Part shown: piece by piece, positions 9,261 to 42,366 of the stretch
Layout: each line of letters begins with the position of its first letter
Numbering within the stretch: position 1 is the first letter of the stretch
Source of the DNA: Veterinaerplatzvirus T145P1
Sequence record: OZ035765.1
Strand: one strand, 5' to 3'
DNA length: 45,062 nucleotides
The notes under the pieces: generated by a model
What the model saw: the letters and a program-made list of their open reading frames with translations, nothing else
What the model was told of the DNA's origin: nothing
Databases searched by the model: none
Position numbers and translations under genes: made by a program

Positions 9261-9266
9261 AGCACA

Positions 9267-9289
9267 AACCCTCTTAGGAGGGTTTTTTA
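9267..9289 (+). terminator. rho-independent terminator (after major tail gene)
   Basis: AACCCTC-TTAG-GAGGGTT followed by T5. Confidence 0.65.
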
Positions 9290-9294
9290 TTGCA

Positions 9295-19277: not shown

Positions 19278-19305
19278 AAAGCCCCTTAATTGGGGCTTTT
19301 CTTTT
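19278..19305. terminator. bidirectional terminator (J gene and convergent minus-strand operon)
   Basis: A-run, AGCCCC-TTAAT-TGGGGCT, T-run. Confidence 0.65.
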
Positions 19306-24076: not shown

Positions 24077-24101
24077 AAGGCCCCTTTTGGGGCCTTTTTT
24101 A
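24077..24101. terminator. bidirectional terminator (ssb and convergent tail fibre gene)
   Basis: AAGGCCCC-TTTT-GGGGCCTT followed by T-run. Confidence 0.65.
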
Positions 24102-27753: not shown

Positions 27754-28233
27754 TCAAATCGTGCTGTTTTGCTCTTTCTTCTTTTGGTTCTCTAATTTTA
27801 TCTTGCGCCATGAACGACACTCTGGCTTAGTGGCTAATTCAGCCTCAGTGACGACTCGCAGCATATGGCGCTTTTTGCACCGAAGTGTCAGCGGTTTCCC
27901 GTTGCCGTCGAATTGCAGGTCTGGTCGGCAGAATGTAGCGCGAAAACCTTCTCCATTTCGCTTATAGTAGTTGTGAGAAAGTTGAGCCCCACGCGCAGAA
28001 ATCATACCGCGCTTAAACCATTCTTCTACAGCCTGTGGTGTTACCTTTAACTGCTTTGCGATATTCGCCTTTGTGCCGAAGAAATCAAGAACTATCTCTA
28101 GCCGCGCGCGTAGCCCGGCTCTTACTTCATCTTTTAAAACATAGTAGCCTGAAGGTCGTTTACGTTGCTTTTTGTCTTCGGTGCGGATGGTTCCGTTATT
28201 GCCGTTAATTGTTCGCTTGTCGACTGTATTCAT
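27754..28233 (-). CDS. HTH DNA-binding protein (Cro/YdaS-like), candidate early regulator
   Basis: FGTKANIAKQLKVTPQAVEEWFKRG helix-turn-helix; own canonical sigma70 promoter; palindromic operator abuts its RBS. Confidence 0.55.
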   Translation of the reverse strand: MNTVDKRTINGNNGTIRTEDKKQRKRPSGYYVLKDEVRAGLRARLEIVLDFFGTKANIAKQLKVTPQAVEEWFKRGMISARGAQLSHNYYKRNGEGFRATFCRPDLQFDGNGKPLTLRCKKRHMLRVVTEAELATKPECRSWRKIKLENQKKKEQNSTI

Positions 28234-35594: not shown

Positions 35595-37178
35595 TCACCC
35601 CAGCAATCTCGGATTAATGTAAACTTTATCACCAATCAGGCACGTATAGTTTTTCTCATCAAGCATTGGCAGTAAGTGATCTTTAATCTTCGTCATCACT
35701 CCAGCCTGAGCCTCGAACGGCTTAACCTTTCGCGCCGCTTCATACAATGAGCGAATGCCAACAACACCCTTACCGTTTTTACCCTGCTTGATCAGGATAT
35801 CAATCAGCTTATTCATCTCGGCATTGTCGCCAGCGTGACCAGCCGCGTTGGCAGATGACAAATAAGTCTTGCTAAGCTCCTGGAACATGATTACAGCTTC
35901 TTGCATGGTATCAAGCTCAATCTCTCTGGATTTCTGTGGACTCCCACCGCTAGGGTTGAACCAGTTGCGCACTGTGTGAAGAACAGCAGCAATCCTGATA
36001 GCCTGCTTATCGAATTTACCCAGCGCGCCGCGCAACATTGTGTGGGAATACTTACCGCCGTCCGCAAGGTGCGGCTCCATTTCCTGACGTGCCCGGTTTA
36101 GATATTTCATCGCTGAGTTGCTAACCGTCAACTTTACTTCTTGCTCATTCATGATTTCGTGAACCAGGCGGAAGTAGTTAGCCTTAAGCTCACCATCAAT
36201 TGGCTCGTAAGTTGAGTTGCCATTCTCATCGACGAATACACGCTCGCCAAGGAATGATTTTTCACGCACAAGTAGAAAACGTTCCGACACACCAATACCA
36301 CGAGCACCAGCATTCATGATTGCGTTTATTGTCTCATCTTGCGCAATTACAGAGATGCATCCCATAGCGACGAAGCTCATGTTGTTTTCTGCGTTCGCAC
36401 GCGCAATGGACACGTTACCAGCATCCCACGCCTTGAGTACGAGCTCGCTGTTCGTTTTCTTTGAGCCATCACCATAGGTCATACCTAGCAGAGAGTTCAC
36501 GCTCGTTGCTTCATCAGAGATAACCGCGAAGTTGCCCTGGCGGTTGTTTATTCGCGCAAGACCTTCAGGTGTCGTATCTGATACTGGAAATACGATATCG
36601 CACATCTTTTCCAGCTTCTCCTCTAAATCCTCTTTCTCCTCAAAGAGAGACGCCATCTCTGATGGTGACTTTTCCTGCTTCATCTCTTTGGATAATGCAG
36701 ACAGCTTTGCCATAATCTTTTTACGCTCACGCTTTCGCACTTCATTAAGCCGCTCAGTCTCAGCAATCATTGGCGCAATAGAAAGCGAGTTAATTGCTGA
36801 TTTACCTGTGGATGGTGGCTGACTGGTTACTACGTATAGAGAGGTCGGTTGCTGGGTTCCGTGATACTCTACTGTAAAACGTCCCAGCATGGCGGCAGAA
36901 ATACACCCCAGAAAGTGCATATAAGCTGAAGACTCTGGAAATTGAACAGAACGGGCAATATTGGCTGACAGCTTACCAACAACATCAATGTCATTACCGA
37001 GTGAGATTACGGGATACTTGTCATTAGCCGCATCAATCTCAACTGGCGCTTTCCAGAATGATTGAGACTGACGATATCCATTGGCATTAATAGCGACGCG
37101 CAGGGGTGGGAGGTTGTCTGCGGCAGCAATTGCCATAACCTGTTCAACAGATAGCTTATCTTCGTTGAAATCAAACAT
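35595..37178 (-). CDS. P-loop NTPase of unknown function
   Basis: Walker A-like SQPPSTGKS and Walker B-like FAVISDEA separated by a charged coiled-coil insertion; own promoter module upstream. Confidence 0.6.
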   Translation of the reverse strand: MFDFNEDKLSVEQVMAIAAADNLPPLRVAINANGYRQSQSFWKAPVEIDAANDKYPVISLGNDIDVVGKLSANIARSVQFPESSAYMHFLGCISAAMLGRFTVEYHGTQQPTSLYVVTSQPPSTGKSAINSLSIAPMIAETERLNEVRKRERKKIMAKLSALSKEMKQEKSPSEMASLFEEKEDLEEKLEKMCDIVFPVSDTTPEGLARINNRQGNFAVISDEATSVNSLLGMTYGDGSKKTNSELVLKAWDAGNVSIARANAENNMSFVAMGCISVIAQDETINAIMNAGARGIGVSERFLLVREKSFLGERVFVDENGNSTYEPIDGELKANYFRLVHEIMNEQEVKLTVSNSAMKYLNRARQEMEPHLADGGKYSHTMLRGALGKFDKQAIRIAAVLHTVRNWFNPSGGSPQKSREIELDTMQEAVIMFQELSKTYLSSANAAGHAGDNAEMNKLIDILIKQGKNGKGVVGIRSLYEAARKVKPFEAQAGVMTKIKDHLLPMLDEKNYTCLIGDKVYINPRLLG

Positions 37179-38800: not shown

Positions 38801-38964
38801 TTATCCTGGCCTTTTAAATTATAACGCTCTCTCAGAACTTCAACCCATTCTTGCGCGTCATTCTCTCTCATGAAGAAACTTAAATTTGGGTACTTGTGAA
38901 ACCCTTTAAGTTCAACTATCCAATGACCACCTTCGTAACTATAACTAACTTTCTTCTCTGTCAT
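38797..38964 (-). CDS. hypothetical protein (55 aa)
   Basis: First gene of the minus-strand operon after a long structured leader. Confidence 0.35.
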   Translation of the reverse strand: MTEKKVSYSYEGGHWIVELKGFHKYPNLSFFMRENDAQEWVEVLRERYNLKGQDK

Positions 38965-39175
38965 TTTGTTACCTTTTGAGTTTTTTTATTATCGACATCT
39001 CTTCAACGTACTCGCTACAACTCGGGATTTTACTCCCGGCCCGGCATCCTAACAAAAGGACCCGATCGGCGCTTTGGTGGGTGAGGTAACGCTTCCTCAC
39101 ATTGCGCGGTAGTATTTACTCCTTTTGGTCTCTTTCGAGAGTGACTCAGAGTCTGCTACCGTGTCGATGAGATTA

Positions 39176-39219
39176 AGTATACGCATAGTTAGCCACACTG
39201 TCTTTAGCAAAAAGTGCTA
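39176..39219 (-). promoter_or_regulatory. conserved promoter/operator module (minus-strand small-gene operon)
   Basis: Minus strand TAGCACTTTTTGCTA, 23 bp, TATACT; followed by about 200 nt leader. Confidence 0.45.
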
Positions 39220-39232
39220 TTCGTTAGATTTA

Positions 39233-39321
39233 TGTATTGTTGCAGATATTGCAATGATTCACTTGATTATTGCACATACAGCAATATTGCTTCCGATGCA
39301 ATGATGTTTTTGATTGTTGCG
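39233..39321. repeat. iteron-like array of ATTG(N)TGCA / ATTGCAAT motifs
   Basis: At least six related motifs spaced 14-18 bp apart. Confidence 0.5.
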
Positions 39322-39508
39322 AAAAGTGAAATTAAGTGGTGAGTGAGTGAATGAAAGATGGATGGACTACCATACAAGTTGATTTTTACCAATCTATGGG
39401 AGCCTCACGGATATACGCGTATCCTCCGTATACTCAGTGTCGTCACAAAAGTTAGTGACCACTAACCTACGTTTTTACGCGATATATACACACGATATAC
39501 AATATAAT

Positions 39509-39574
39509 ATCTATATATATCAACCTTTTACTTTATTATTATTATTATTATTATATATATGTATACTGTGTATA
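39509..39574. repeat. AT-rich block, copy 2 with longer (ATT)n tract
   Basis: Same core as 20695-20751 with two to three extra ATT units. Confidence 0.7.
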
Positions 39575-39614
39575 CCGGTAATTGGTGAGATTATTGATAT
39601 GTTCCGCGCAGATA

Positions 39615-39632
39615 TTCTGACACCTGTCAGAA
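39615..39632. promoter_or_regulatory. perfect 8-bp-arm inverted repeat TTCTGACA-CC-TGTCAGAA
   Basis: Directly readable palindrome downstream of the AT-rich block and upstream of the 39850 gene. Confidence 0.45.
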
Positions 39633-39849
39633 ATGGATGGCATTGTAGGAATAAAAGGCACATATATAGGGAATGGCTTCAAAAATCTGTACACATCGGA
39701 TACGGCACATTTACAACCAGCAATGGAGGGGCCTCTGGAGGCAAGAAGCGTATCCATGATAAAATAGACGAAAATATACATTGACCGACACGTAAATAGA
39801 TGGCAATATAGCAGTCACTGAAACGAAGTAAAACAAACGAGGTATCAAC

Positions 39850-40398
39850 ATGCAGAAAGTAACACTAGGTGAAGTTATCCGTGAGATGGTGCGCAACGCG
39901 ATGGTGTCCGAGAGTGGTGAGTTTAAAGTTCCGGTTAGCCAGATATTCAAACTGGTTCGAGGCAAGGAATACCCTGAAATGGTGTATGACGAAGATACTA
40001 GTGAGATCCTCAACCTGGCAGATAGGGCGATGCCGGAACTAAAGAACTCATACATCTATAACACAGTGTCGAGAATGACAGAGCTTCGCGATGCTAATAA
40101 GCGAGCGAGATATAAGTTCATCTGGATTGATGATGACGGAGAGCAAACAAGGCCCGGTAGCTTCGACGGTGATGGCGCTGATAAATACCTGGTCATATAC
40201 ATTGAGAACGGCGCGCACTGGACTGGGAGTCGCGAAAAGAAAAAGCAGGAAGCGGAGAAAGAGGCGGCTATCATTGAAAAGTTCAAGTCTAGACTGCTCA
40301 AGCTGTCACCAAGTGTTGCTGGCTTGGAAGGTGAAGAACTTAAGGGCGCTGTTACAATGATTAATGCTTATCAGGAAATGATTAAGGAGACTAAGTAG
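39850..40398 (+). CDS. hypothetical protein
   Basis: 182 aa; first plus-strand gene after the divergent control region. Confidence 0.5.
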   Translation: MQKVTLGEVIREMVRNAMVSESGEFKVPVSQIFKLVRGKEYPEMVYDEDTSEILNLADRAMPELKNSYIYNTVSRMTELRDANKRARYKFIWIDDDGEQTRPGSFDGDGADKYLVIYIENGAHWTGSREKKKQEAEKEAAIIEKFKSRLLKLSPSVAGLEGEELKGAVTMINAYQEMIKETK

Positions 40399-40489
40399 TA
40401 GACTACCATACCACTTGCGGTACAGCGAGGAAGAGGTTGAGGTGGCCATTGAGTTCTATCGGAAAGCTAAATCACTACTGAATGGTAAA

Positions 40490-40533
40490 TAGCACTTTTT
40501 GCCTAACGCGGTAATGCCATGGATGGCATAATA
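40490..40533 (+). promoter_or_regulatory. conserved promoter/operator module
   Basis: TAGCACTTTTTGCCTA, CATAAT, leader GCCTCATCGAAACGAG. Confidence 0.45.
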
Positions 40534-42322: not shown

Positions 42323-42323
42323 A

Positions 42324-42366
42324 TAGCACGAATTGCTAAACCCGCTCCTGCGGGTTTTGTTATAGT
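42324..42366 (+). promoter_or_regulatory. conserved promoter/operator module
   Basis: TAGCACGAATTGCTA, 22-bp spacer that is itself a terminator-like hairpin, TATAGT. Confidence 0.5.

Follow-up and report, generated by a model that had tools for sequence, protein, structure and literature searches.

An inverted-repeat array in the early control region of the T1-like phage Veterinaerplatzvirus T145P1, a candidate operator for the host regulator EvgA

A perfect 18-bp palindrome, TTCTGACACCTGTCAGAA, marks the early control region of the phage Veterinaerplatzvirus T145P1 (record OZ035765.1; the 45,062 nucleotides analysed are referred to as the window). In the best reading of the sequence, the palindrome is the primary, high-symmetry member of a row of two to three putative sites for a dimeric helix-turn-helix (HTH) protein, phased at about 20 bp. 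The array is tentatively predicted to be an operator for EvgA, modulating the rightward early operon of the phage. EvgA is a response regulator of the NarL/FixJ family, and the output of the EvgS/EvgA acid-stress two-component system. The sites exist, are phased, form a conserved island and fit the EvgA consensus. Regulation is almost unstudied in T1-like phages (Drexlerviridae), although these rank with the most common coliphages and are often isolated when collections for phage therapy are built.

Architecture and conservation of the array

The 1.3 kb around the palindrome are 86-99% identical to DNA of many Escherichia and Shigella phages (Drexlerviridae, T1-like siphoviruses), and by its sequence the window phage is a T1-like coliphage of the Drexlerviridae. 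The leftward gene block stops near 39100, and the ~750 bp up to the first rightward gene (39850) are non-coding. The palindrome resides inside this stretch, which separates the divergent gene blocks. The initial annotation had described it as TTCTGACA-CC-TGTCAGAA, with perfect 8-bp arms at 39615-39632, between an AT-rich block and the 39850 gene; the sequence proved exact, and the location was confirmed, the block spanning about 39480-39575 and the ATG being that of a 182-aa open reading frame (ORF) at 39850. The arms, set apart by a 2-bp spacer, carry the motif TGTNNGAA, and the ATG is 217 bp downstream. ORFs crossing the palindrome (39437-39784, 39633-39767, and others on the minus strand) were discarded. 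The control region is regarded as non-coding because these ORFs are broken by single-base indels in relatives, where start codons, the ATG at 39633 included, are also gone.

Further half-sites, absent from the initial annotation, are found to the right of the palindrome, denoted inverted repeat 1 (IR1; Table 1). A third half-site, TGTAGGAAT, is a direct copy of the right arm (39644-39652), conserved in 18 of 19 homologues and replaced by TGTCAGAAT in phiA2-1. The spacer preceding it, GGATGGCA in the window and GGATGACA in most relatives, features a conserved GGATGRCA. A fourth copy, TATAGG(G)AA(A/T), is located at about 39665-39674, ~21 bp past the third, and the corresponding unit, IR3, reads TATAGGAAA in JeanPiccard, Sd1, 12210I, A110b, phiA2-1, mgL033 and mgL037. 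Each right-hand copy is preceded by a degenerate left half ending in ACA. The half-sites of IR1 are 10 bp apart, centre to centre, and the centre of IR2 is ~19.5 bp to the right of that of IR1. The module thus reads as three units of the inverted-repeat type, with centres ~19.5-20 bp apart, on roughly the same face of the helix.

By count alone, the palindrome is not above chance. Perfect palindromes (arms >=8 bp, spacer <=6 bp) number 5 in the window versus 4.7 ± 2.3 in dinucleotide-preserving shuffles, and any functional claim must rest on relatives. The remaining four (9266-9285, 19278-19299, 24077-24096, 42338-42357) are GC-rich, flanked by A-runs and T-runs, and resemble the hairpins of bidirectional intrinsic terminators. 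The half-site TGT[C/A][A/G]GAA occurs 7 times in the window versus 6.6 expected, three of the 7 copies being packed within 38 bp at the array. Outside this cluster, a genome-wide scan with TGTMRGAA and TGTNNGAAW retrieved matches at chance frequency only, which excludes a dispersed regulon motif.

The comparison covered nineteen versions of the region, taken from phage records in GenBank and from metagenomic data; scans of IMG/VR and of metagenomes contributed only 6 new homologues. The head-to-head 8-2-8 layout is found in 19 of 19. Between phages of the window-type lineage and those of the CJ19/OzMSK type, IR1 is 80% identical, and the spacer with the third site 83%, versus 43-45% in the flanks; the inferred promoter of the early operon is 60% identical. 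The main evidence for a function of the module is this conserved island. IR3 is conserved only within the window-type lineage (44-61% across lineages). Within the window-type lineage, the whole 750-bp region is ~87% identical, and conservation there is uninformative.

The palindrome might have no function of its own, and be a product of chance or a decaying remnant in a generally conserved non-coding region. The palindrome count, the overall identity of the 750 bp in the window-type lineage, the imperfect versions found in several lineages and the dispensability of the module in T1, Rtp and IME542 agree with this explanation. It is nonetheless considered unlikely, as opposed by the conserved island in divergent lineages, by the presence of three to four half-site copies phased at ~20 bp, and by the match of four phages to the site of a host regulator at 16 of 16 positions (see below).

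The combination TTCTGACA/TGTCAGAA is perfect in 8 of the 19 phages, and TTCCTACA/TGTAGGAA, in which both central pairs are changed on both sides, in 4 (OzMSK, PH1062, XT34, BUCT-XGG-1); 7 phages have mixed, non-palindromic arms, as TTCTGACA/TGTAGGAA or TTCTGACA/TGTAAGAA. The central spacer of IR1 varies freely (CC, CT, CA, AG). The palindrome might alternatively act as a nucleic-acid hairpin, either in single-stranded DNA or in an RNA, be it a small RNA or a long 5' untranslated region (UTR) transcribed from a promoter in the AT-rich block. In favour of this are the perfect complementarity of the arms, compensatory double changes at two pairs, and pairing of 93.8% of the cells in an alignment of 14 sequences. 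Taken on its own, a 34-nt segment gives a better fold than its shuffles (z -2.1 to -2.5). Weak promoter-like sites were detected in the AT-rich block by a promoter scan, and a -10-like TACAAT at 39498-503 could give rise to a transcript running through the palindrome. The stem measures only 7 bp, however, with a 4-nt loop (-8.3 to -8.8 kcal/mol), and the 81-nt context has no stability beyond that of shuffles (z -1.0 and -0.3). Only 2 related sequences carry the compensatory changes, the observed score is attained by 9 of 500 shuffles, and the central pair (pair 5) is mismatched in 5 of the 14 sequences. A hairpin would moreover leave unexplained the third and fourth direct copies and the conserved GGATGRCA spacer. 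The stem is not followed by a T-run, and no Rfam match was found near the site at E <=1, the two sub-threshold matches in the region being elsewhere; alternative pairing with the third copy showed no covariation. A hairpin is therefore very unlikely.

The RNA hairpin in the 5'UTR put forward in the initial annotation as one of two options fares poorly also on account of its location, as the palindrome is ~190 bp upstream of the implied transcription start. It would not be part of the 5'UTR, because transcription from the inferred promoter (Table 1) would start downstream of it. An intrinsic terminator was excluded too: only 3 of the 7 pairs are G-C, neither strand carries a T-run, and 0 sites are predicted in the 38900-40500 interval. 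Overall, the data appear to fit a degenerate half-site, TGT[C/A][A/G]GAA(T/A), for a dimeric protein better than an obligatory hairpin. The operator for a dimeric regulator, the other option in the initial annotation, finds support in the comparison of relatives: spacing of the half-sites, free variation of the spacer, joint arm changes in some lineages, phased half-sites, and fit to the EvgA box in relatives. The initial interpretation as a whole is thus borne out in part.

Similarity to the EvgA box

The consensus of the EvgA box is reportedly TTCYTACA-NN-TGTARGAA (Masuda & Church 2002/2003; Itou et al. 2009), a string not found verbatim in the searchable literature. This consensus was checked on 34 kb of the E. 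coli K-12 MG1655 genome (evgAS/yfd and ydeP/safA regions). Matches with <=2 mismatches are five, versus an estimated ~0.03 expected by chance, and all five are intergenic and upstream of known EvgA-activated operons (Table 1). These functional boxes have their 0-2 mismatches at outer positions. A second imperfect repeat is found ~20 bp past the frc box. Inverted repeats upstream of yfdX and yfdW are bound by EvgA, and ydeP is regulated by EvgA (PMC3720670); ydeO is activated by EvgSA (PMC4222967).

Phage sites can be sorted by their fit to the same consensus. All the 16 specified positions are matched in OzMSK, PH1062, XT34 and BUCT-XGG-1, an event expected by chance at ~1e-9 per position. One mismatch (15/16) is found in CJ19, mgL036, BEK6, mgL030 and mgL031, two in the window and 8 other phages, three in phiA2-1. 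Genomes bearing the module have one site each with <=3 mismatches, which is IR1 in the window; T1, Rtp and IME542 have none. The third site, as TGTAGGAA, is a perfect EvgA half-site in 18 of 19 phages, and IR2 of the window phage retains it. IR1 of the window matches 14 of the 16 positions, or 7 of 8 in each half-site. The fit of the window palindrome alone is not significant; it is the relatives and the third site that carry the case for EvgA. The distance from the box to the start codon is 217 bp in the window and 111-251 bp at E. coli EvgA targets. E. coli K-12 MG1655 carries both evgA and evgS. The record of the window phage names no host; nearly all module-bearing isolates list Escherichia or Shigella as host, the exception being the UNVERIFIED 'Campylobacter phage A110b'.

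Several observations weigh against EvgA. In IR1 of the window, position 4 of both half-sites is C (TGTC, not TGTA), whereas A is found in 12 of the 12 E. coli half-sites examined; the affinity of EvgA for IR1 may be reduced in the window phage, or a different protein may be involved. A lone palindrome matching 7 of 8 positions per half-site, set against ~200 known E. coli factors, has an estimated p of about 0.1 after correction. No activator-dependent promoter geometry was recognised beside the array, the inferred promoter being ~150-190 bp away, and the EvgA boxes of MG1655 show no single spacing to -10 elements which could serve for comparison. No paper linking EvgA to T1-like phages was found in the searchable literature. 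Finally, the module is accessory, and dispensable, because T1, Rtp, IME542, EB49, AHS24 and phiKP26 lack it, yet keep the adjacent AT-rich block.

The exact window variant, TTCTGACANNTGTCAGAA, has at least 120 matches in bacterial genomes, in unrelated taxa and at chance level, and among the matches listed there is no Escherichia and no enrichment of Enterobacterales.

Sites for other E. coli regulators were also compared. LexA, CRP, FNR, FadR, TyrR, NarL, DnaA, IHF and Fis were excluded on geometry or sequence, RcsB because the same half-site has the opposite orientation, UvrY/GacA because the same half-sites point outward and are 6 bp apart. A promoter overlapping the palindrome was excluded by inspection: the CTGACA residues of the arms are -35-like, but no usable -10 is found on either strand. 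Nor is the variant TTCCTACA -35-like.

A protein other than EvgA, either another host regulator or a core phage protein, might bind the same phased operator or iteron array. The preferred half-site would be TGT[C/A][A/G]GAAT, and the EvgA fit in some lineages partly coincidental. This explanation, which is rather unlikely, takes account of TGTCAG, off-consensus for EvgA and found in one or both arms of 9 of the 19 phages, and of the tolerance for CA, AG and AA at motif positions 4-5; a binding factor of some kind is also what the conserved island speaks for. The candidate among phage proteins is a T1 gp23-like Cro/HTH regulator (27754-28233, minus strand), related to PF14549 P22_Cro below threshold at E 4e-6. 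This regulator is 97% identical in Rtp and IME542, both devoid of the module, and no motif copy is found near its gene. More generally, no window ORF is present in OzMSK and CJ19 and missing from Rtp, IME542 and T1, and the identities of the small terminase, the Cro-like regulator, the primase, two helicases and DUF7174 do not track the module. DUF7174, encoded by the 39850 gene, was discarded as cognate binder, being 35-36% identical in the module-bearing OzMSK and CJ19, and 44-51% in the module-lacking Rtp and IME542. A phage-encoded EvgA-like protein was discarded as well, as a phmmer search with EvgA against the six-frame translation of the window retrieved nothing below E = 3. A host factor is the simpler candidate, because the window encodes no detectable EvgA homologue and no window ORF co-occurs with the module. 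The chance-level distribution of the window variant in unrelated taxa, with no enrichment in Enterobacterales, and the match at 16 of 16 positions in four phages also speak against a protein different from EvgA.

If EvgA is the cognate protein, activation of EvgS would lead a dimer of phosphorylated EvgA to bind IR1. Further dimers would then fill the weaker IR2 and IR3 cooperatively, on the same face of the helix, spreading rightwards. Bound in this way, EvgA would modulate the rightward early operon (from 39850 on), most likely by activation from upstream, as at all its known targets in E. coli, and early phage expression would be coupled to the acid-stress state of the host. Binding by EvgA, or by any protein, the promoter affected and the direction of the effect are predictions from the sequence.

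The phage site shares with E. coli EvgA boxes the head-to-head 8-2-8 geometry, the half-site (matched perfectly in four relatives, and at 7 of 8 positions in the window), the intergenic location, and the presence of extra weaker sites nearby, as at yfdX and frc. It differs in residing in the genome of a virulent phage rather than in the host chromosome, in the C found in the window version where E. coli half-sites have A, and in the failure to recognise an adjacent activator-dependent promoter. The closest studied homologue of EvgA is BvgA, which binds arrays at the fha and ptx promoters of Bordetella. In these arrays, sites of lower affinity, spaced by about two helical turns, come after a primary inverted repeat built of TTTCYTA-type heptads, and are filled cooperatively towards the promoter. 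The order IR1, IR2, IR3 is similar, and the same logic is proposed for the phage array. Organism and regulator are different, and whereas BvgA arrays reach the -35, the phage array stops ~110 bp before the inferred -35.

Control and packaging regions

The features of the control region are listed in Table 1, along with the EvgA boxes of MG1655 and the marboxes described in the next section. The promoter at 39781-39809 is the one from which we infer that the 39850 gene is most likely transcribed. Its -10 is preceded by TG at 39801-02, and in CJ19-type phages TTGATA, 17 bp, TAATAT occupy the same alignment columns (233-262). The promoter scores below the threshold of a simple consensus promoter scan. 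The palindrome is ~150 bp upstream of its -35. An inverted repeat, GGATACG (39698-39704) and CGTATCC (39749-39755), is located between the array and this promoter; its arms are conserved and the 44-nt interior varies among window-type phages. GTATCC and GTATAC motifs are found again at 39412-39433.

Table 1. Features of the window and EvgA boxes of E. coli K-12 MG1655
Feature	Position	Strand	Remarks
IR1, TTCTGACA-CC-TGTCAGAA	39615..39632	.	14/16 match to EvgA-box consensus; symmetric mismatches T5 to G, A14 to C
IR2, degenerate left half/spacer, then T, then EvgA-type half-site TGTAGGAAT	39634..39652	+	homologue comparison
IR3, weak fourth site, AAGGCACA-TA-TATAGGGAAT	39654..39674	+	read directly from sequences
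AT-rich block with (TAT)n run, directly left of module	about 39480..39577	.	alignment of relatives
Tandem 9-mers TGTATACTG/TGTATACCG	39560-39577	.	right edge of (TAT)n AT-rich block
Inferred sigma-70 promoter of rightward early operon: -35 TTGACC (39781-86), 17-bp spacer, -10 CAATAT (39804-09)	39781..39809	+	alignment, inferred
First rightward early gene, 182 aa, DUF7174	39850..40398	+	PF23796, E 5e-49
Marbox 20-mer starts	2116, 9294, 30742, 31583, 33693, 40489, 40786, 42323, 43700	+	
Marbox 20-mer starts	20595, 27767, 38039, 39220	-	
frc/yfdW box TTCTTACAACTGTAAGAA	MG1655		0 mismatches
yfdX box GTCTTACAATTGTAGGAA	MG1655		1 mismatch; second box 38 bp away with 3 mismatches
safA-ydeO box TTCTTACAGCTGTAGGCA	MG1655		1 mismatch
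ydeP box TTCTTACAGGTGTAGGCT	MG1655		2 mismatches
emrK/evgA box TTCTTACGCCTGTAGGAT	MG1655		2 mismatches

The AT-rich block is common to all the T1-like phages compared, including those lacking the module. The two 9-mers at its right edge, TGTATACTG and TGTATACCG, are jointly swapped for TGTAGATAA TGTAGATA(A/G) in the CJ19/PH1062/mgL036 lineage. The replacement matches 8 of 9 positions of TGTGNAWAA, the complement of the DnaA-box consensus. That two direct repeats have changed in concert suggests a further site for a protein. Copies of the region, 79-97% identical, are also found in MG065688 (Campylobacter phage A110b, UNVERIFIED), PP134917 (Pseudomonas phage PsgS01F) and PQ433353 (Enterococcus phage vB_EfeBG-143); these records with non-enterobacterial hosts are probably contaminants or have mislabelled hosts.

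Three inverted-repeat-type sites spaced at ~20 bp beside an AT-rich block of ~100 bp also recall a replication origin, in which lambda-like iterons flank a DNA-unwinding element. At lambda ori, four 18-19-bp inverted-repeat sites for the O protein are located next to an AT-rich region. The lambda iterons reside inside the initiator gene and need a phage-encoded initiator, whereas no initiator co-occurs with the phage array. For T1-like phages, recent genome papers give no replication origin and no exact map position of pac (PMC11447400, PMC7718038). A gene for a 527-aa protein with a DUF3987 domain (35595-37178, minus strand; E 6e-42) lies ~2 kb left of the control region. It is conserved in all T1-like phages (T1 gp09) and annotated as helicase, ATPase or hypothetical; the protein may be the replicative helicase. 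The presence of this helicase-like gene nearby would suit an origin. Against it, T1, Rtp and IME542 keep the AT-rich block and lack the array. The lack of a co-occurring cognate initiator also speaks against an iteron-type origin.

The array could alternatively be part of the pac region, as it is in this intergenic stretch that the ends of T1-like genomes and their pac site are located (PMC7718038). Identity of the small terminase to that of the window, however, is 99% in Rtp and 93% in IME542, which lack the module, and 55% in CJ19 and 94% in OzMSK, which have it. Position 1 of the records of T1 (start of the annotated 2.8-kb terminal repeat), Rtp and OzMSK corresponds to about 39280-39290 in the window. 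These starts are surrounded by TTGCA/TGCAA repeats clustered at 39236-39332, ahead of which a P22-pac-like AGATTTAT is found at 39226-39233. A resemblance of this kind to P22 pac was also the basis on which pac was assigned in TLS (PMC11447400). The end of SU57 supported by PhageTerm maps to about 39389, and in the SU57 study pac is attributed to this untranslated stretch (PMC7718038). Packaging functions are assigned to the DNA 230-390 bp left of the palindrome, because record starts, the SU57 end and the P22-pac-like site map there; record starts and the P22-pac-like site, in the TTGCA cluster, are 330-390 bp to the left. A site for the small terminase was thus discarded, as the module does not co-vary with this protein and packaging starts elsewhere. 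Taken together, origin and pac make a scarcely probable explanation of the array. The widely conserved palindromic TTGCA/TGCAA repeats of the window (39222-39340), exemplified by ATTGTTGCAGATATTGCAAT, ATTATTGCACATACAGCAATATTGCTTCCGATGCAAT and GATTGTTGCG, probably serve T1-like phages as pac, or as the region recognised by the small terminase.

Putative marbox-type promoters and host stress signals

An element resembling the sites of other host activators is found in the genomes of T1-like phages. In the TLS genome paper, only three sigma-70-like promoters were found, and a 21-nt intergenic repeat was left unexplained (PMC11447400). The repeat is aaATAGCACnnnTTGnTAAAA, with the element ATAGCAC-N3-TTG-N-TAAA, and 25 copies are found in the window at <=3 mismatches, versus 6.1 expected. 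It fits at every specified position AYNGCACNNWNNRYYAAAYN, the consensus of the marbox recognized by MarA, SoxS and Rob. The classical mar marbox of MG1655, ATGCCACGTTTTGCTAAATC, has 1 mismatch to the same string. Of the 15 marbox sites found in the window at <=1 mismatch, 13 are followed by a strong -10, mostly TATAGT, at a distance of exactly 18 bp (in 11 cases) or 19 bp (in 2). In the six T1-like phages scanned (window, T1, Rtp, IME542, CJ19, OzMSK), this arrangement of marbox, 18-19-bp gap and -10 is found 12-18 times per genome, versus 0.3-0.8 in shuffles. The same layout is featured by the E. coli micF promoter (ACAGCACTGAATGTCAAAAC, 18 bp, TAGAAT, 7 bp to the annotated +1), a class II Mar/Sox/Rob promoter. 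In promoters of class II, the marbox has a forward orientation and overlaps the -35 (PMC6900184).

The leftward early promoter also seems to be of the marbox type, with marbox ATAGCACTTTTTGCTAAAGA (39220-39201), 19 bp, and TATACT (39181-39176) on the minus strand; the rightward promoter at 39781-39809 is sigma-70-like and carries no marbox. Two of the GC-rich palindromes described above are close to marboxes. The one at 42338-42357 resides within the 18-bp spacer between the marbox at 42323-42342 and the -10 at 42361-66, and the one at 9266-9285 ends 8 bp ahead of the marbox at 9294. Such packing of terminators and promoters fits the 'transcripton' idea quoted for T1 (PMC11447400).

No paper linking marboxes to T1-like phages was found in the searchable literature. 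The data suggest that most promoters of the T1 family depend on Rob, MarA or SoxS, or on an as yet unknown mimic. The use of EvgA by these phages is more plausible because the marbox, another element of the host-activator type, is found at about 17 promoters in the same genome. By extension, T1-like virulent coliphages might wire their transcription to host stress, through the EvgA-box array and ~17 class II marbox promoters in which MarA, SoxS or Rob would be needed in place of a -35; this broader proposal is doubtful.

Boxes for host factors are known in other phages, as the LexA boxes in coliphage 186 and CTXphi, and the DnaA or IHF sites in P1 and lambda. As in these, the control region of the window phage would carry the consensus site of a host regulator, and development would follow a physiological signal of the host. 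The difference is that the former phages are mostly temperate and rely on SOS or architectural proteins. For strictly lytic T1-like phages, the searchable literature yielded no box for a two-component response regulator.

An EvgA operator in the array would be a host-regulator operator of known class, the unusual part being that a strictly lytic phage carries it in its early control region. The comparison suggests that a lytic phage reads a host stress signal: the phage would sense at its early control region a two-component signal of the host, mild acid, which is relevant to the gut, and this would bear on the performance of such phages in acidic niches. The marbox interpretation offers an explanation for the apparently missing promoters of the T1-like family, and predicts their dependence on Rob, MarA or SoxS. 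If the wider wiring to stress holds, phage development would be gated or tuned by the Mar/Sox/Rob and EvgS/EvgA states of the host, as during gut passage or under antibiotic or oxidative stress, and lineages would set the strength of the EvgA input through symmetric changes of the half-sites (from TGTAGG to TGTCAG) or through loss of the module, as in T1 and Rtp.

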